DNA from: Enterococcus phage 9181
Sequence record: MT939240.1
Direction: 5' to 3' (one strand)
DNA: 64,000 nucleotides
The notes beneath the pieces are model-generated. The model was not told the origin of the DNA. It did not search any database and was given only the letters and a program-made list of their open reading frames with translations. Positions 20,236-39,248 of the stretch are shown piece after piece. The stretch's first letter is position 1, and each line of letters begins with the position of its first letter. The position numbers were made by a program, and so were the translations under genes.

Positions 20236-20697
20236 GTGAGCACCTTTGGCAGAGTGCTTTCCTTGAAGACTAGCAATGTTAAATTTATTGGCACGAAGCC
20301 TAATCATACGTTTGGGTATACGGGTATTACACTAATTAGTGCTAATAGTAAAAGGAGAACCACCTTGCACAGAATCGTGGCAGAAACTTTTATCCCAAAG
20401 CCACCAGAGTGGAGAGAAGATTGGCATGTAAATCACATCTCAGGAGACCCTACTAATAATTCAGTTACCAACTTAGAGTGGTGCACTGCAAGTGAAAATT
20501 ATTTACATCCTAACTGTAACCGTAAACGCTCTAAAAAAGTTCGTCGGATAAGCATTGAAGACGGATCGACAGAAATTTTTCTCAATGCCTCTGTAGCGGC
20601 TAGATCAGTTGGTGGTAGGGCTTCAGAGGTTTGGCGAAAGTGTAATAAAGCCTCTAAAAAATTAGATTATATGAATTATTTTTGGGAGTGGGCTTAG
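20236..20697 (+). CDS. HNH homing endonuclease
   Basis: HRIVAETF...WHVNHISGDPTNNSVTNLEWCT HNH motif. Confidence 0.65.
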   Translation: MSTFGRVLSLKTSNVKFIGTKPNHTFGYTGITLISANSKRRTTLHRIVAETFIPKPPEWREDWHVNHISGDPTNNSVTNLEWCTASENYLHPNCNRKRSKKVRRISIEDGSTEIFLNASVAARSVGGRASEVWRKCNKASKKLDYMNYFWEWA

Positions 20698-20754
20698 CGC
20701 CTGCTCCTATTAGCGTTTGCGAAAGATTTTTCTATCTCTTAAATTTCTCGATTA

Positions 20755-20832
20755 TTTTCCTAACCTTCAAGTTTTTAAAAAATTTTCCTAACCTTCAAGT
20801 TTTTAAAAAATTTTCCTAACCTTCAAATTTTC
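20755..20832. repeat. tandem direct repeat, 2.7 copies of the 28 bp unit TTTTCCTAACCTTCAAGTTTTTAAAAAA (iteron-like)
   Basis: Exact 28-bp units at 20755-20782 and 20783-20810, then a degenerate third copy. Confidence 0.85.
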
Positions 20833-21182
20833 GTTTTATTTTTTTTTGACTTTCAAAAATCAAGAAATTTTTTCCTCTTAAGCTAAATTTTATACTTTTT
20901 TTCAATATACTATTTGAAATTCGTGTCATATACGAGCATTCTGGCGCCTTTTCAAAAGTCTTCCCGACCAATTACCCACTTAAAAACCTCAGGCAACGCC
21001 TCTGCCACACCTCGATCCACCACCTTGACCAAAAATGTTACGAATACACGCATCAAAAAGCGTTTAGTTAGTTTGAACGTAACAACTTTATGATCCTTTC
21101 AATAAAAGATATTTAATAAGCATACAGCAAAGCATATTCAGGAGCATATGAAATGCTGATTATGAGCATATGGAAACATGTT

Positions 21183-21317
21183 CCCCAGATTTTTGAAGAA
21201 CTTCACTTAAAATATAACAAAAACATCCCCAGAATTTTGCATACACTCCCCCAGATTTTAAAAGAAAATCACATAAAACATAGTAGTGGTGTGTGCGTGT
21301 GTGCCCCCAGATTTTTT
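21183..21317. repeat. four dispersed copies of a CCCC(C)AGA(A/T)TTTT motif, with a (GT)n tract at 21286-21303
   Basis: Copies at 21183, 21227, 21248 and 21304; the last two extend to about 30 bp of similarity (ccccagatttt..aaaa..cacataaaac). Confidence 0.8.
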
Positions 21318-21697
21318 AAAAAACACACATAAAACGTAATGAAAAACACTTACTTGAAAAGCTATCAAAATAACACTTTTTAAGTCAAAATTAAAGGAAA
21401 AAAATGCCCCTTTCCAGATCAATAAAATAACGAACTTCCTACCGAAAACATTAAAACCTTTAAAAGCGCCCTATTTTGCACACGTAAAAAAGCCTTGAAA
21501 GCCTTGATGTTATTGGGTTTGTGGCTGTTTTTAGTGTCCAATTTGTAAAAGTTTCTACTATTAAAAGCCACAAAAAAGAACGCCAAAAAACTTTTTAGGG
21601 AAAATAAGAGAAAACTCTTGTATTTATTTTCGATATGTATATAATAAAGAGTGTAGAGAACAACAAAACAAAAATAACAGCAAAAAGGGGGTTTTGG

Positions 21698-21784
21698 TAT
21701 GTTTGGCTTTTGGGTATCTATGTTAGTGATGTCTTTGCTAGTTTGTGGCTTTGTCGAGTGGTTAGGCAACGGCGAAAAGAAATA
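21698..21784 (+). CDS. tiny hydrophobic peptide (about 28 aa, MFGFWVSMLVMSLLVCGFVEWLGNGEKK)
   Basis: ATG at 21698 after AAAAGGGGG; a single TM helix. Confidence 0.3.
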
Positions 21785-21928
21785 ACAGAAAGTTGAAAAA
21801 AGTGTTTGACAACCTCGAAAATGTTTGATACACTTAATGAGTATTAAAAAGTAACATCTATTCGGACGAGCTTCAAAATGTTTCACTTATTCTAACTGTT
21901 TCAAAAATACACTTAAGGAGGTTTGCAC

Positions 21929-22036
21929 GTGTTTAATTATCGGAATGAAAAGCAACAAAAAGAGCGTGACTTTTTTACACGTTGGTTCATCATTCTAGGG
22001 GCTTTCATAGGAATTGCGTTGGCTTGGTTCATGTAA
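21929..22036 (+). CDS. tiny hydrophobic peptide (about 35 aa)
   Basis: GTG at 21929 after AAGGAGGT; C-terminal TM helix FIILGAFIGIALAWF. Confidence 0.35.
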   Translation: MFNYRNEKQQKERDFFTRWFIILGAFIGIALAWFM

Positions 22037-22091
22037 AAAGATTTTAAAAAGGACTTGCGAAGCAAGCGCCAAAATGCTATCATGAAAAAGT

Positions 22092-22141
22092 AGTCAAAAG
22101 GTTATAAAAAACTAACTTATAAAAAGGGGTTTTCAAAAATG
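22092..22141 (+). repeat. conserved leader repeat copy A (AGTCAAAAGGTTATAAAAAACTAACTTATAAAAAGGGGTTTTCAAAAATG)
   Basis: About 45 bp, nearly identical to 24774-24821 and, for the 3' 30 bp, to 22532-22564. Confidence 0.85.
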
Positions 22142-22546
22142 AAAATTATTAAAACAGTAGAAAAACTTATTGAACGTGCAGAAAGAAAAGGCGTCGCAAC
22201 TTTAAATAGAAAAGTAAATCAAGGTTACGGCGTTTATTACACTAGTGAAGTTTATCGAGTGGAAAAAGAGGGCAATATTTTCACGCTTTACCACTACGAA
22301 ACAAAAACATGCCAGATTGACACAGCAACAGAGGAAATTTTGTATGTTTATGGTGAAAGCGTAAGCGATGCGGATAGCATTTTTACTTTTTTACATTATT
22401 TCGATATCGTGCTATCGTTTGGCTATAAACCAGTAAACGGTGGGTTTTATGCCAGCGTTAACGGTAAACAAATATTTATAGATGACTTTGACCGATTGGA
22501 AAACTTCACCAAAGCAATTAAAAAAGAAATTAAAACTAACTTATAA
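22139..22546 (+). CDS. hypothetical protein
   Basis: Follows leader repeat A; 135 aa. Confidence 0.5.
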   Translation: MKIIKTVEKLIERAERKGVATLNRKVNQGYGVYYTSEVYRVEKEGNIFTLYHYETKTCQIDTATEEILYVYGESVSDADSIFTFLHYFDIVLSFGYKPVNGGFYASVNGKQIFIDDFDRLENFTKAIKKEIKTNL

Positions 22547-22564
22547 AAAGGAGTTTTCAAAATG
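22532..22564 (+). repeat. conserved leader repeat copy B
   Basis: AAAACTAACTTATAAAAAGGAGTTTTCAAAATG, overlapping the stop of the upstream gene. Confidence 0.85.
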
Positions 22565-23029
22565 AAAAAACTAACAAAAAACGAACAACATCAAAATGCA
22601 ATCGAAGAGGCAACTCAAAGACTTATCAAAAAAGTGAATGATGTTATTAATAGTCTTTCACAAGATGAAAAATTCTATACACTTTTAAATCTATCTCAGC
22701 AAGTTAACTCTTATGATTGTTCACTTGACACCTGTATCGAACCGATTTCATTTATTGATGACTATCTTGCAGAAATGCCTTTTCTGGAAGCATTACAAAA
22801 AATAGACATGGATAATTTTGACCCATTAGATGATTATCTAATCATGACTATCTATGGTATTGAATCGGCGGACGAGGCAAAAGCCTTAGAAGCTCTCGAA
22901 TTAATACAAGATGAAATAGTAGAGGGAACTATTTTAAATTGGGAACATATTTATTATTATGATATCAATGAAAATATAGTTAACCTCATCAACAAATTTT
23001 ATGAACTACTTGAAAGCAAAGAGGGGTAA
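22562..23029 (+). CDS. acidic hypothetical protein
   Basis: 155 aa; N-terminus MKKLT shared with 24819 at the nucleotide level. Confidence 0.5.
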   Translation: MKKLTKNEQHQNAIEEATQRLIKKVNDVINSLSQDEKFYTLLNLSQQVNSYDCSLDTCIEPISFIDDYLAEMPFLEALQKIDMDNFDPLDDYLIMTIYGIESADEAKALEALELIQDEIVEGTILNWEHIYYYDINENIVNLINKFYELLESKEG

Positions 23030-23032
23030 AAT

Positions 23033-23314
23033 TTGGCAACTAACTTCGAATTCATTCATAAGCAACTAGAGAGAAGCTTCCATCCCATCAATGACTTAAA
23101 ACGCTCGCAAGTTTTAATGCGACAAGAAACAAAAAACCTACTAACACAGATCAAGAAAGGGGCTTCCGTCAAAGATTTGGCGGAACCTTTGGAAAAAATG
23201 GTAAAAGACTTTGACCAACTAGCCTCGGACGTTCTTTCCGTGGAATGTTATGTTAGGTCAATAAAAAACCCCATTCAGGAATCACTAGGAAGGAGGGTCA
23301 ACAGTCATGACTAG
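23033..23314 (+). CDS. hypothetical protein
   Basis: 93 aa. Confidence 0.4.
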   Translation: MATNFEFIHKQLERSFHPINDLKRSQVLMRQETKNLLTQIKKGASVKDLAEPLEKMVKDFDQLASDVLSVECYVRSIKNPIQESLGRRVNSHD

Positions 23315-23612
23315 CCTATTAATTGGGGCGCTTGCTTTGGTTGGTTCGTTTACAGTCTATTATTACGCTTTCAAGGTTATATCAAACTTTTTAGACTGGA
23401 TGAATGATTTTAAGTATAAAATAGAAAGGCAATCACAAAAGACAAGGGATAAAATAGCCGTAAAAAAATTCCTTAAGGAAGAAAAAGAAAGAGAGTTACA
23501 AGAGGCAATCTTACGAATGAAAGCCGAAAAACTTAAAAAAGAGAAAATGTTAAGCGACCTAGCTAACGACTTAGAAAACGACGACACAAAAGAAGAGTAC
23601 AAAACTTTTTAA
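23307..23612 (+). CDS. hypothetical protein (N-terminal TM helix plus charged coiled coil)
   Basis: 101 aa. Confidence 0.4.
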   Translation: MTSLLIGALALVGSFTVYYYAFKVISNFLDWMNDFKYKIERQSQKTRDKIAVKKFLKEEKERELQEAILRMKAEKLKKEKMLSDLANDLENDDTKEEYKTF

Positions 23613-23633
23613 TTAAAAAGGAGACTGGAAAAC

Positions 23634-23972
23634 ATGGAAAACAAAAAAGAGTTATTCATAAATAAAGGAGAAAAAAGGACTCAAGTAACTGACGGAAAAA
23701 ATGCCGTATCATTCGAGCGTGTAAATAACGACATTTATGGAAATCCCCTCTACAGGGTGTATCCCGTAACTTATTCATTCAGAAGATTGAAAAGCGTATA
23801 CAGAAATTATGAGAGTAAAGGTTACTACCTTGTTCAATCCTATAACATTCTGGCAGATTGTGCCCGTATTATTGACGAGGTTAACAACCTTGTAACGCTT
23901 CCCGAAAATTGGCGAACTGATTTCGATTACTATAAGGCGCTCGGATACACAAAAACAACGGCATTTATATAA
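23634..23972 (+). CDS. hypothetical protein
   Basis: AAGGAGA RBS; 112 aa. Confidence 0.45.
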   Translation: MENKKELFINKGEKRTQVTDGKNAVSFERVNNDIYGNPLYRVYPVTYSFRRLKSVYRNYESKGYYLVQSYNILADCARIIDEVNNLVTLPENWRTDFDYYKALGYTKTTAFI

Positions 23973-24013
23973 AACGGATAAGAAAAGTTGAAAAATAAAT
24001 TAAAAGGTGGAAA

Positions 24014-24295
24014 ATGAAAATGAAAATGAAAAATAGAGAGTATGAAAAAATTAAAGAATCGTTGGCTGCTTTTGGTGTAGAAAAGATAATAGCATATAAG
24101 ATGCAACTCGAGGAGCTATTTGCTTCAGGTGAAAGCAACATAAAAAACGTAGAGACCCGCTTGATTTTTGAAGTGTATTATGCTTGTGTACCTAAGGAAT
24201 TGCGTAAGGATATTATGGACAATAACGATTATAACGACGCGCATATTAAAACAGCAGTAAAAAAAGCTTTGAAAGAGTTGGGGATTTTAAAATGA
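24014..24295 (+). CDS. hypothetical protein
   Basis: AAAGGTGGA RBS; 93 aa. Confidence 0.4.
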   Translation: MKMKMKNREYEKIKESLAAFGVEKIIAYKMQLEELFASGESNIKNVETRLIFEVYYACVPKELRKDIMDNNDYNDAHIKTAVKKALKELGILK

Positions 24296-24382
24296 ACGTG
24301 AAAGAGTAGGCTACACGAGAACAGGCAAAGGAAAACGGGCACGACCGCCGAAAACAAAACAATCAAAAAGGGGATAATTATC

Positions 24383-24538
24383 ATGCTAAACTTATTCATA
24401 TTTTTATCACTTGTCAAAGGTGCATTCATTCTATTCGCAATCATTTCTGTAATTGCCGTTATTGGAATTTTTGCAATGTCTCAAAAAGCACTAGAAACAA
24501 AAATCAAAGAATTAAAACAATCAGGAGGCAAGTGGTAA
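24383..24538 (+). CDS. tiny membrane peptide (51 aa)
   Basis: ATG after AAAGGGGA; TM helix FILFAIISVIAVIGIFA; ends 24538 and is followed immediately by another small ORF starting at 24540. Confidence 0.35.
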   Translation: MLNLFIFLSLVKGAFILFAIISVIAVIGIFAMSQKALETKIKELKQSGGKW

Positions 24539-24773
24539 AATGAAAAAAGCAAACATTCAAACAAAACTCGAAAAACTTTGGTTAACTTATGTAATACAGC
24601 CCGAAAAGGTTCGTAACGAGCTATCTTTTACGGATTGGGTTTGTGTCGATAAGGATTGGCTAGTGGAAGAAAGAGAAAGACAAGCGAGCGTCAAGGCAAC
24701 CAACTAAAAAAAACTAGAGAGGTTGGCAAGTTATACTTGTAAGCCTCTTTTTAATATGCTAATATAAAGGAGT

Positions 24774-24821
24774 AGTCAAAGAGCTATAAAAACTAACTTA
24801 TAAAAAGGGGTTTTCAAAATG
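24774..24821 (+). repeat. conserved leader repeat copy C
   Basis: AGTCAAAGAGCTATAAAAACTAACTTATAAAAAGGGGTTTTCAAAATG. Confidence 0.85.
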
Positions 24822-25289: not shown

Positions 25290-25318
25290 GAGGGGCGTTT
25301 GATACGCCTCTTTTTTAT
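25290..25318 (+). terminator. intrinsic terminator (gaggcg-tttgatac-gcctc plus T6)
   Basis: Read directly from the sequence. Confidence 0.6.
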
Positions 25319-26539
25319 GCCCTTAAATACTACTAACTAACGAAGCATATGAGAACATTAAGCGACCAACGGACAAGCGACGGAATAAACAGGCGCTTAT
25401 AATGCTCGTGTGTGCAATGATCTAATAAGGATACGGGAAGGCGTGTGTACTCCTTTAATAAGAGGCGTTTAAAATCCTTATAATATAGTTATGGGATAAG
25501 CTTGTGGGTTATGTAATGGATACACCTTTGACACACCCCCCCACTGATTGGCTGCCAGCAAGAAGCCCCTCACGGTAACCCTATATAATACTATATTAAA
25601 AGCCTCGCAGAACGTACGAGAAGCCTCTCTAATGTAATAGGTAAGTATATCATAATACTATTAAAAAGGTGGCAAAGTGTCTCTTTTGTAATAGTTAAAG
25701 GTAGCCCCATTTATTAGGCGTTAAGATAATCATCTGGCAATCATTTTCGGGAGGGGGCTATTTTATGCACGGGGCTTTTTGTGGTGGGCATTAGATTGGT
25801 GGGGCATAGCTTTGTCGGGGGCTTCTTATTGTGGTGGTTAAATAGTTTGCAAAGGTTTGGCTTTCCTTTGACGATACTGTTGTGATCCTTTTGAAATGGT
25901 AGTGGACTACGGACTCACACACCTAAAACACAATAGGGGTCGGGAGGTGTGGCAAAGGATCGGACACCCTACTAATCTCCCTACCATATTAATGGGATAA
26001 TCGAGGCATGACCACGCCACACACAACGCCCCATTCATGCCCTCTATAGTAAGGTGTATATGATGGGCTTCTCTTAGTTTACATAATGTACATTATACAA
26101 AGTAGTTTAATATATTAAGATAGCCTTGCCACGGCATGCATAGGGTAGCACCACACCACCACACACACGACCACGACAAGGCATGACCATCACTTCATAA
26201 TAACAACAGCACACACACCGCCCGTCACACCACCACACACCACGAGCCACGCACACAGGTGAATGACCATAGCATAACAGAACGGCAGGCACCCCGAAGG
26301 GAGGGGGTAACTTAAAATTTTTGACGCGAGCCCGTGGACACTCAGTCTCTTGGAAATTTCGGATTTTCCCAAAAGGGGTCGTCAATTTTATTTTTTCTGG
26401 ATTTCCTAAAGGGGCTCCGAAGCCTTTGCAATACCCTTACACACGAGGCGTTCACACAAGCTTTACACCTGATCCCACACTAGGCTTCACACACAAGTAA
26501 TACACACACGGAGTGAAGAAAAGGTTACACATGAGCAAT

Positions 26540-26653
26540 GCTAAACGCCGCTCTTATTATCATTCTGATGATACTTTCTAAGTGATCTTGTTGCCAACCA
26601 TCTTCCGATAAACGCCCCAATAGTTACCCACACCACTATCGTAAATACTCTCA
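26540..26653 (-). CDS. tiny hydrophobic peptide (37 aa)
   Basis: GTG start after ATAGGAGGAG on the minus strand; sequence RVFTIVVWVTIGAFIGRWL. Confidence 0.3.
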
Positions 26654-37927: not shown

Positions 37928-38448
37928 TTAGCTTCTGAAACTAAAGTATTTCGTTCTCTTTTAATCTTGTCGATCTCTTCTTCAATTACTTCTAACTCGA
38001 GCATCTTAACTCGAAGCACATCACCACGTTTTAAAGTGGCTGTCAATGTGTAAAGTTCTAATGCACGCTCTGTTAAAGCGATTAACTCTTGGGAAGAGTC
38101 TCTTATAGCTGTGTTAACTAACCGCTTAGCAGTGTTCTCAATAGCTTTCTGTAACTGCGGAGAACTCTTGGCAACTGCCTGTCGTAACTCGCTTGCTTCA
38201 CGGTCAGTACTTCGATAAACAGTAATGACTTTCTTAGCACCTACGCTAATGATGTATGTGATTTCTTCTAACTCGTCTAACCATACTTGGCTACCGTCTG
38301 GTTTAACCTCAATTCGGTTAGCTCGTGAAAGACCTCCCCTAACAAACTTAAGTATTTCCATGTTTGTTTTAGAGCTGTCAATACGTTCATTAAAACGCTG
38401 TGTAGCATGTGCTGATAAAGTATACTGTACGAAGTTAGGTACTCCCAT
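37915..38448 (-). CDS. hypothetical protein with DUF4258-like N-terminus (SAHATQRFNERI) and C-terminal coiled coil
   Basis: First gene after promoter 38480-38509; RBS rc AAGAGGAGG. Confidence 0.4.
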   Translation of the reverse strand: MGVPNFVQYTLSAHATQRFNERIDSSKTNMEILKFVRGGLSRANRIEVKPDGSQVWLDELEEITYIISVGAKKVITVYRSTDREASELRQAVAKSSPQLQKAIENTAKRLVNTAIRDSSQELIALTERALELYTLTATLKRGDVLRVKMLELEVIEEEIDKIKRERNTLVSEAKCLL

Positions 38449-38479
38449 TTAAATGTTCCTCCTCTTAACTGATGAATTA

Positions 38480-38509
38480 ATCATACCATATACATCGGAA
38501 AAGTGTCAA
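38480..38509 (-). promoter_or_regulatory. sigma-A-type promoter (minus strand: TTGACA, 18-nt spacer, TATGAT)
   Basis: Reverse complement: ttgacacttttccgatgtatatggtatgat. Confidence 0.55.
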
Positions 38510-38549
38510 TACCATTTTGGACGTTTTTTAAATTTATCGGAATTGTCTG

Positions 38550-38578
38550 TTGTAGAGGCATTTATGTAAAAGTAATAT
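38550..38578 (+). promoter_or_regulatory. possible weak promoter for the morphogenesis operon (TTGTAG, 17-nt spacer, TAATAT)
   Basis: Hexamers read from the sequence; poor -35. Confidence 0.25.
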
Positions 38579-38603
38579 ACCTAATATAGTAAGGAGGACT
38601 AGA

Positions 38604-39248
38604 ATGGGTAAAATACAAATAGGCTCACGATCCATTGATGACAGTCGCCAACGGAAGTATATGACAACTTCCCAAGAACCAACTACATTTGACGGAGTTG
38701 ATCTAACTACTCTAAAGCCTAAAATGAAACGTTTTGCAAGGCATTATATGTCTACCGTCAACGTAACTCAGTCAGCAGAAGCTTCTGGGTACACCCCTGC
38801 AAGTGGTTTCCGACTTCTAAAACGAGCGGATGTTCAAGCTTACCTACAGTGGTTAGTCACTGATGAAGCCAATGCGGACATCGCTTCCCCCACCGAAGTC
38901 CTAGAAGGATTGACACGGGCAGCTAACGGAGAAATGTATGACCAAGTTGTTTTGCAGAACGGTAAGATAGTTGAGAAAAGGATTGATGCAAAGGATCGTA
39001 TCTCAGCTTATAACACATTAGCTAAATTCCATGGCTTGCTTCAACCAGAAGTACAAGTCAATCAACAATTCAATATCAACGTGGATATCGTTGACGCTGT
39101 GGAAGATGATGCAGAAGTTATTGAACCTGATGAAGAAGAAATTGTCGATGGAGACTTCACGGAACTTGAATCAGATGAAGATGAAGAGGTTGTCTTTAAC
39201 TCTGCTGACTTTGATGCAGGATTCTTGGGAGGTATCGGTAAACAATGA
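38604..39248 (+). CDS. terS: terminase small subunit
   Basis: LKPKMKRFARHYMSTVNVTQSAEASGYTPASG matches the Terminase_2 family signature; acidic C-terminus; sits upstream of TerL. Confidence 0.85.
   Translation: MGKIQIGSRSIDDSRQRKYMTTSQEPTTFDGVDLTTLKPKMKRFARHYMSTVNVTQSAEASGYTPASGFRLLKRADVQAYLQWLVTDEANADIASPTEVLEGLTRAANGEMYDQVVLQNGKIVEKRIDAKDRISAYNTLAKFHGLLQPEVQVNQQFNINVDIVDAVEDDAEVIEPDEEEIVDGDFTELESDEDEEVVFNSADFDAGFLGGIGKQ

Follow-up and report, generated by a model that had tools for sequence, protein, structure and literature searches.

Replication origins that are primed by transcription include T4 oriF and oriG, the primary origin of T7, ColE1 RNA II and the mitochondrial CSBII. Phage promoter classes and activator boxes include the SPO1 gp28 and gp33/34 promoters, the T4 MotA boxes and the phi29 p4 sites; these motifs recur at many operons, and a gene for the factor can be identified. 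Noncoding, repeat-rich elements beside the replication genes of phages or satellites act as origins, as is described for the 302-bp element of phage phiSfi21 (PMC6356513). In the noncoding region of the PLE satellite, one of four repeat families is the iteron of the initiator (PMC7145576). Here we describe a noncoding island in Enterococcus phage 9181 (sequence record MT939240.1), which was analyzed in a stretch of 64,000 nucleotides (the window; all positions are those of the window). The segment 20698–21600 reads as a conserved, presumably protein-bound cis-acting region and most likely as a replication origin, although we hold this reading tentatively and with somewhat less than even confidence. 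An origin is favored because an array of boxes in the same orientation lies beside the most meltable DNA of the window in a transcriptionally quiet gap at the end of the replication module, and because the other large noncoding region of the genome probably holds the genome ends.

The noncoding island and its boxes

The first-pass annotation had described a noncoding stretch of 1.4 kb containing two possible tiny peptides. The noncoding part stands, but it measures about 1.0 kb (20698–21698), and both peptides are probably genes. The stretch 21600–22138 is a separate entity, the head of a small-gene operon, and does not belong to the island proper. The island is one of only two large noncoding regions in the genome, and it contains the following features.

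20683–20709, + strand: terminator-like hairpin with an 11-bp stem and a weak U tail, overlapping the stop codon of an HNH gene; left border of the island
20721–20920, no strand: most meltable 200 bp of the 64-kb window, 20% G+C; candidate DNA-unwinding element
20726–20832, + strand: 28-bp periodic T-rich array, one degenerate unit and 2.8 exact units of ATTTTCCTAACCTTCAAGTTTTTAAAAA
20922–20960, + strand: single-copy block CGTGTC-N7-GAGCATTCT-N8-TTTC, unique in the window
21036–21084, no strand: inverted repeat TGTTACG ... CGTAACA, kept in the 72-kb lineage
21183–21215, + strand: box B1, full unit CCCCAGATTTTT-N-ACTTAAAAT, present only in the 72-kb lineage (the window, EH93P1, EH802P2 and the uncultivated virus genome (UViG) L006)
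21227–21238, + strand: box B2, half unit CCCCAGAATTTT, second half-site absent
21248–21281, + strand: box B3, full unit CCCCCAGATTTT-N-ACATAAAAC
21286–21303, + strand: GT-rich tract GTGGTGTGTGCGTGTGTG, the local form of a conserved GGCGTGYG block between B3 and B4
21304–21337, + strand: box B4, full unit CCCCCAGATTTTTT-N-ACATAAAAC
21338–21376, + strand: block ATGAAAAACACTTACTTGAAAAGCTATCAAAATAACAC, nearly invariant in the 72-kb lineage
21547–21567, + strand: motif AAAAGTTTC(C)TACTATWTAAAG, present in 11/11 genomes

The boxes, first described as CCCC(C)AGA(A/T)TTTT, are real: CCCCAGAWTTT matches exactly at 21183, 21227, 21249 and 21305, always on the + strand. The four exact matches lie within 133 bp and none occurs elsewhere in the 64 kb, for which shuffled sequences give an expectation of 0.11 (none of 100 shuffles reaches four). 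The boxes are the first halves of a bipartite unit of about 35 bp, CCCC(C)RGR-T4-7 ... ACWTAAAAY, and the second half-site, ACWTAAAAYRT, is found in the window only at 21205, 21271 and 21327. An extension of two boxes to about 30 bp had been noted before; the extension is there, but it belongs to three boxes (B1, B3 and B4) and completes the unit of about 35 bp. Box geometry was scored in ten genomes, in which 24 boxes counted as full units and B3 of EC55P1, with a degenerate half-site, was counted apart. Counted from the first base of the T-tract, ACWTAAAAY lies 15 bp away in 22 of the 24 full units, and the remaining two have 16 bp instead; the bases between the half-sites vary freely across genomes and no pairing is conserved in the spacers. 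Rigidly placed half-sites around a free spacer suggest that a protein recognizes the duplex DNA; they do not suggest an RNA helix. B2 is always a half unit, its 12-mer is identical in all ten non-Saphexavirus genomes and its T-tract begins 21 bp ahead of that of B3 (23 bp in L006). In the EG103 phages CGGGA may stand in place of CAGA, as it may even inside one genome (L006). The composite box is absent from GTDB genomes, Enterococcus included, and a search for plasmid-borne decoys of the boxes found none.

The A+T-rich segment and the other blocks

The 28-bp tandem repeat was confirmed with Tandem Repeats Finder (20754–20831, period 28, 2.8 copies, 98% matches), and a degenerate fourth unit, ATTTTTCTATC, begins at 20726, exactly 28 bp upstream of the exact array. 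The surrounding segment, 20721–20920, scores -1.105 kcal/mol per step in a nearest-neighbor stability scan in which the window averages -1.297; among 200-bp segments it is the least stable of all, and at 60 and 100 bp it comes second. The exact triplication is found only in this phage; two degenerate units stand in its place in EH93P1 and EH802P2, and other lineages carry 0–4 loose copies of a 9-nt core, TTTTYCYNA, at variable spacing (13–42 bp). Conservation in related phages had been named as a check on the iterons, and here the outcome is divided: the exact 28-bp copies are kept neither in number nor in sequence, but the loose T-rich motif recurs. What relatives share at the position of the array is extreme A+T richness.

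Between the A+T-rich segment and the operon lie several further blocks. GCATTCT is invariant in 11/11 aligned genomes, including that of the Saphexavirus IME-EF1. The inverted repeat at 21036–21084 differs by lineage, since L006 lengthens its arms to 9 bp and the EG103 phages have CTTGGCCAAG instead. An exact TACGAATA, which we take to be the core of the streptococcal ComX com-box, lies at 21039–21046 in the region of the left arm of this repeat and is kept in EH93P1 and EH802P2; a com-box reading of it was rejected, since L006 has lost the string and chance could produce it in 64 kb. The AGCATAT micro-repeats were found again at 21131–21175. The tract first described as (GT)9 is present, but as an imperfect GT-rich run of 18 nt, and the EC and EG lineages have no GT run at the position of the GGCGTGYG block. 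Identity is 93% over 21346–21430, and the block 21338–21376 is judged not to be coding because a 1-nt deletion in L006 shifts the frame.

The left-border hairpin (predicted fold -18.6 kcal/mol, z -2.2) closes the + strand block that contains DnaC, DnaB and PolA, and the island follows directly. EC55P2 and IME-EF1 have an equivalent hairpin at the same border, followed by U-runs. An I-HmuI-like free-standing HNH gene (20236–20697) lies immediately left of the island, as it does in EH93P1 and EC55P1 (L189 766–1278 and L001 4598–5032); EC55P2 and the EG103 phages have no HNH gene there. The border resembles a homing hot spot, and the window contains at least four further HNH/NUMOD4 genes.

Conservation in related phages

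The source phage is an Enterococcus siphophage of about 71 kb and a relative of Saphexavirus: its large terminase is 63% identical to the counterpart in Saphexavirus EF-P29, and a Logan contig of 71,192 bp, which derives from SRR22802270, carries the sequence of the window. A megablast search with the interval flagged by the first-pass annotation returned only four phages, all of Enterococcus hirae (EH93P1, EH93P2, EH802P2 and EH802P1). Three of them match at 84–85% identity over most of the query, and EH802P1 matches over 52 nt at 90%.

A homologous noncoding island was found in every relative examined, Saphexavirus included, and always in the same slot, between the replication-operon terminator and the promoter that opens the small-gene operon. 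The relatives with an island are EH93P1 and EH802P2, the 72-kb IMG/VR contig L006 (about 70–74% identity), the phages of about 59 kb EC55P2, EC99P1, EC55P1 and EG103P1-3, and the Saphexaviruses IME-EF1, KEN03 and KEN05. An alignment of 11 genomes, including IME-EF1, reveals conserved blocks set in variable filler that is prone to slippage. The order of the blocks is TTTTYCYNA motifs, CGTGTC..GAGCATTCT..TTTC, a lineage-specific palindrome, the B boxes, TTTTGCACA, AAAGTTTC(C)TACTATWTAAAG and the promoter. The bipartite unit is kept in five phage lineages; the boxes are invariant in EH93P1 and EH802P2 and are also present in L006, EC55P2/EC99P1/EC55P1 and EG103P1-3. Unlike the 28-bp array, the boxes are thus strongly conserved in related phages, as the first-pass annotation had required of true sites. 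In BLASTP comparisons between the window and the EC/EG phages, the proteins on either side of the island do not match each other, so the shared DNA blocks are better conserved than their neighbors. Searches for wider relatives added none: two loose pattern scans of viral contigs gave chance matches, a metagenome scan gave only low-quality junk, and a protein-based scan of viral contigs gave one unrelated contig of 155 kb.

How the island may act as an origin

A candidate origin or a landing pad for DNA-binding proteins had been proposed from the first look at the sequence. The anatomy of the island and the conservation of its boxes fit this proposal, and from them we infer protein binding to the boxes, unwinding of the A+T-rich segment and initiation of replication. 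A putative DNA-binding factor specified by the phage would occupy the bipartite boxes B1–B4, which share one orientation. The nucleoprotein complex at the boxes, possibly with the help of transcription, would then open the A+T-rich segment 20721–20920, which holds the T-rich 28-bp repeats, and the DnaC-like loader and DnaB-like helicase encoded by phage genes upstream could enter at the opened DNA. Therapy against Enterococcus is a widely proposed use of Saphexavirus-like phages, and the island offers a defined, conserved target for origin mapping, for work with origin decoys ("phage-encoded resistance"), for the choice of safe engineering sites and for a search for the factor with a B-box probe.

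An iteron origin has at least three direct repeats in the same orientation, and the island has four B boxes and an array of about four units; an easily melted A+T-rich segment lies adjacent to them (20721–20920). Two other parts of such an origin were not found in this analysis: an encoded cognate initiator, sought in Pfam and the PDB, and DnaA boxes within the island, which belong to origins assisted by host DnaA. The Pfam scan covered 77 non-structural open reading frames (ORFs) at E<=1e-3, plus five large structural ORFs for sigma and RNA polymerase domains. Several observations weigh against an origin. The Pfam scan of the 77 non-structural ORFs detected no Rep_3, RepA_N, lambda-O-like, DnaD-like or helix-turn-helix domain, though remote homologues may be missed by it, and PDB sequence searches with three candidate initiator proteins returned no relatives. 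The window has 20 DnaA-box matches where 18 are expected, which is no enrichment, and none lies inside the island. The distance between B3 and B4 is 54–57 bp in the 72-kb lineage against 78–79 bp in the EC/EG phages, a difference of about 23 bp with which strict helical phasing is not kept. Saphexaviruses proper keep the other blocks of the island, but a single box with an expanded C-run (C9-12 AGTTTCC) replaces the B array. Relatives do not keep the 28-bp array itself, and in EH93P1 a strict copy of the core motif is missing. Finally, A+T richness extends over the entire region 20.7–24.8 kb, which limits the specificity of the stability minimum. The hunt for an initiator with Pfam, PHROGs and PDB sequence searches found none overall, and a weak DUF1376 match (E 6e-4) was not located. 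The alignment shows only weak, position-conserved strings that resemble DnaA boxes.

The adjacent small-gene operon

The operon to the right of the island begins with three promoters and two micro-genes.

21618–21645, + strand: sigma-A-type promoter TTGTAT-N16-TATAAT, read from the sequence, the first of the operon
21699–21785, + strand: micro-gene for a hydrophobic 28-aa peptide, MFGFWVSMLVMSLLVCGFVEWLGNGEKK, with a Shine-Dalgarno sequence and its own promoter
21806–21834, + strand: sigma-A-type promoter TTGACA-N17-TACACT with a TG extension
21929–22036, + strand: micro-gene for a 35-aa peptide with a C-terminal hydrophobic helix, with a Shine-Dalgarno sequence and its own promoter
22055–22083, + strand: sigma-A-type promoter TTGCGA-N17-TATCAT with a TG extension and a leader, serving the gene 22139–22546

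A homologous first promoter stands in the same place in EC55P2 (TTGCAA-N17-TATATT) and IME-EF1 (TTGACA-N17-TATATT). Compared with relatives, the 28-aa micro-gene has three synonymous and one or two non-synonymous codon changes, and the 35-aa micro-gene six synonymous and three conservative non-synonymous changes. Both ORFs are probably real genes, since a Shine-Dalgarno sequence and a strong promoter of its own accompany each of them and since synonymous changes exceed non-synonymous ones; their products are candidate early membrane-acting micro-proteins. A peptide ending in WL(G/D)N and similar to the 28-aa product is encoded at the same place in EG103P3 (L009 5538–5618). Two other ORFs were rejected: a 59-aa ORF across the boxes, because the boxes are read in different frames and indels in relatives shift the frame, and a minus-strand ORF of 155 aa (21419–21886), because it overlaps both conserved + strand micro-genes. 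A cassette of promoter and 5' leader (ATGCTA..TAGTCAAA..CTATAAAAACTAACTTATAAAAAGGGGTTTTCAAAATG) is found at 22070–22140 and again at about 24740–24820, before two different small genes. EC55P2 has a leader duplicate of 39 nt, and what had appeared to be a second copy of the island in that phage is merely this duplicate.

Transcriptional readings of the boxes

The main rival is a transcription-control hub, in which the boxes would be sites for a phage regulator or unconventional promoters without a role in replication, and would control the adjacent small-gene operon or yield a noncoding transcript. We regard this as possible but unlikely. The boxes have a promoter-like geometry, with two conserved blocks about 24 bp apart from center to center, and the island lies upstream of the cluster of sigma-A-type promoters. 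On the minus strand, each box reads as AAAAAT or TAAAAT, a -10-like hexamer, and continues with CT and then GGGG; a conserved ACGTTTTAWGT at about -33 to -23 resembles an activator box, and B2 has a TGn extension in two lineages. C also exceeds G on the + strand of the island in 11/11 genomes, the reverse of the flanking + strand genes. However, the boxes stand 270–430 bp upstream of the first recognizable promoter, too far for simple operators; no acceptable sigma-A pair of -35 and -10 elements is found at them in either orientation; and the arrangement around the G-run differs in Saphexaviruses. A sigma-54 promoter in the B3–B2 interval on the minus strand (GG-N10-GC) was also considered and dropped, for while the window, EH93P1 and EH802P2 fit TGG-N9-TGCA, the GC is lost in L006 and the EC/EG phages.

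The suggestion that the boxes are promoters for a phage sigma-like factor is unsupported on two counts. No sigma or RNA polymerase domain was found by Pfam in the 77 non-structural and five large structural ORFs, and the boxes are confined to 21183–21315 and are reused before no other operon; the box motif is absent upstream of the terminase genes. Strong sigma-A (host-type) promoters are dispersed across both non-structural blocks. Promoters of the sigma-A type are nearly absent from the structural module (38448–38604 and 38.6–64 kb), for which neither a late activator nor a sigma factor was recognized. A literature search found no papers on EH93P1 and its relatives or on a Saphexavirus transcriptome.

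A variant joins transcription to replication. The B boxes would be leftward, factor-dependent promoters whose G-rich RNA, starting in a G-run, would prime or open the A+T-rich segment about 300 bp downstream through a persistent RNA–DNA hybrid, as in an R-loop origin of the kind of T4 oriF/oriG or mitochondrial CSBII. We consider this variant rather improbable. Within it, the poly-G(9-12) of Saphexaviruses would be the same R-loop device in a different form, and, were it true, R-loop origins would extend to this group of phages of Gram-positive hosts with siphophage morphology. The excess of C over G on the + strand fits either such a G-rich leftward transcript or a Rho-loading region.

Insulator, module junction and structured RNA

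The second of these possibilities is that the island is an insulator or backup terminator, whose C-rich, G-poor + strand would act as a Rho-loading (rut) region and stop read-through from the replication operon short of the small-gene operon, the repeats being incidental. The GC skew is -0.2 to -0.56 over 20700–21500 and negative in all relatives too, the island directly follows a terminator hairpin that in this phage has a weak U tail, and the RNA of the island is predicted to be unstructured (z +0.25). Composition cannot explain invariant 12-mers, the fixed 15-bp offset between half-sites or single-copy blocks shared across lineages, however, and 800–1000 bp far exceeds the needs of a rut site, which leaves this explanation improbable. 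To much the same degree we doubt that the island is a recombination-prone junction between modules that bears slippage repeats and serves no dedicated function. Duplications private to one lineage (in this phage the 28-bp array, in EH93P1 a doubled GAAAYGCTGATTAYGA) and HNH homing endonucleases at the left border in some lineages only are what such a junction would show, but blocks shared by lineages without detectable similarity of the flanking proteins argue for purifying selection on the DNA.

Rfam and tRNA searches found no known RNA family and no tRNA in the island. A structured noncoding RNA was rejected, with no Rfam match and fold z-scores (+1.2, +0.25 and -1.7) that are not significant, as was a hairpin at 21518–21574, whose pairs are broken by substitutions in relatives. 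A different noncoding stretch, of 700 bp and G+C-rich, lies upstream of the replication module in EC55P2 (L209 821–1517), with a T-arm-like GGTTCGAATCC and a terminator at its end; ARAGORN found no tRNA or tmRNA in it, Rfam gave a sub-threshold tRNA-Sec match (23 bits), and it may be an uncharacterized RNA. The window does not include the corresponding region.

Genome layout and genome ends

The genes of the window are laid out as follows.

1–20.7 kb, + strand: replication and nucleotide-metabolism genes (RNA ligase, DnaC-like loader, DnaB-like helicase, DNA polymerase (PolA), RuvC)
Right of the island to 25.3 kb, + strand: small genes
25290–26540: second large noncoding region, between convergent + and - blocks
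26.8–38.4 kb, - strand: minus-strand gene block
From 38.6 kb onward, + strand: structural genes

Three giant proteins are a tail protein/Tal of 2316 aa (Prophage_tail), a Dit of 1256 aa and a tape measure of 1041 aa. The second noncoding region contains CA-rich repeats (CACACC and ACACA boxes).

That the island is a packaging signal or a physical end (a pac or cos site, or the edge of a terminal repeat) is largely refuted and very improbable, since the ends of relatives map to the other noncoding region. Assembly breaks do occur at or close to the island in several cases: EH802P1 is missing precisely 20714–24477 of the window, UViG L006 ends at about window 21588, the KEN03 and KEN05 records start or end at the poly-C box, and the Logan contig ends inside the 28-bp array, which breaks short-read assemblies. 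Apart from the EH802P1 gap, these breaks coincide with a homopolymer or tandem repeat, however, and are likely to be assembly effects; the end overlap of about 125 nt in KEN03 would likewise seem to be an assembler overlap, and the terminase genes are 17 kb away. The annotated terminal repeats of TV16 (1–340) and SE (1–343) lie in the other noncoding region, where the starts of eight or more independent Saphexavirus records cluster within about 30 nt. A 31-nt block at window 26075–26105 is common to the Saphexavirus end region, about 70–120 nt from the record starts. The genome ends and packaging signals are thus probably in the other noncoding region, at about 26.0–26.3 kb of the window.

For the genus, the literature gives PhageTerm results of "DTR (short)" or "headful" (PMC11465766, PMC13227665). 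The KEN03 and KEN05 records break at the C9-12 homopolymer (L013 1–130, L014 1–12, L015 1908–2032), whose length varies between isolates, and their "DTR (short)" call is to be read with these breaks and the KEN03 overlap in mind. EH802P1 is 100% identical to EH802P2 on either side of a gap of 3.6 kb that comprises the island and early small genes (EH802P2 locus L002 4891–8491). The EH802P1 record is linearized at the gap, the borders have no microhomology and the right border falls inside a 51-aa ORF; the gap could be a branch of the assembly graph (a deletion or variant subpopulation) or a misassembly. A long terminal repeat deduced from it is unsupported now that the ends are placed elsewhere.

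Comparison with known systems

The bipartite box motif has not been described before, and the cluster itself is of a familiar general kind. Like the SPO1, MotA and p4 sites, the boxes consist of conserved blocks at a fixed distance; unlike those sites, they are restricted to one stretch of 155 bp, and no factor was found for them in the Pfam scans. The likeness to transcription-primed origins lies in the minus-strand boxes, where a -10-like sequence is followed by a G-run and from which a leftward RNA would meet the A+T-rich segment about 260–460 bp further on. The G9-12 run of Saphexaviruses at the position of the island is similar, but without an upstream -10-like hexamer. The -35 regions of the island are poor, in contrast to such origins.

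The island resembles origins with iterons and A+T-rich DNA (lambda ori, the enterococcal and lactococcal theta plasmids of the Rep_3 and RepA_N types, and PLE) in that noncoding repeats of the same orientation stand beside meltable DNA. It differs from them in that its unit is long (about 35 bp) and bipartite with a free spacer, in that the units are dispersed (21–79 bp apart) and do not abut, in that B2 is always half a unit, and in that it comes with no recognizable initiator gene and no cluster of DnaA boxes. By description the island is also like the "phage-encoded resistance" element of Streptococcus thermophilus phage phiSfi21, a short noncoding repeat element in the replication module of a siphophage of a lactic acid bacterium, which is about three times shorter (PMC6356513); sequence similarity between the two was neither sought nor found. 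As in the PLE origin, several repeat families coexist in the island, and in PLE only one of them is a true iteron (PMC7145576).

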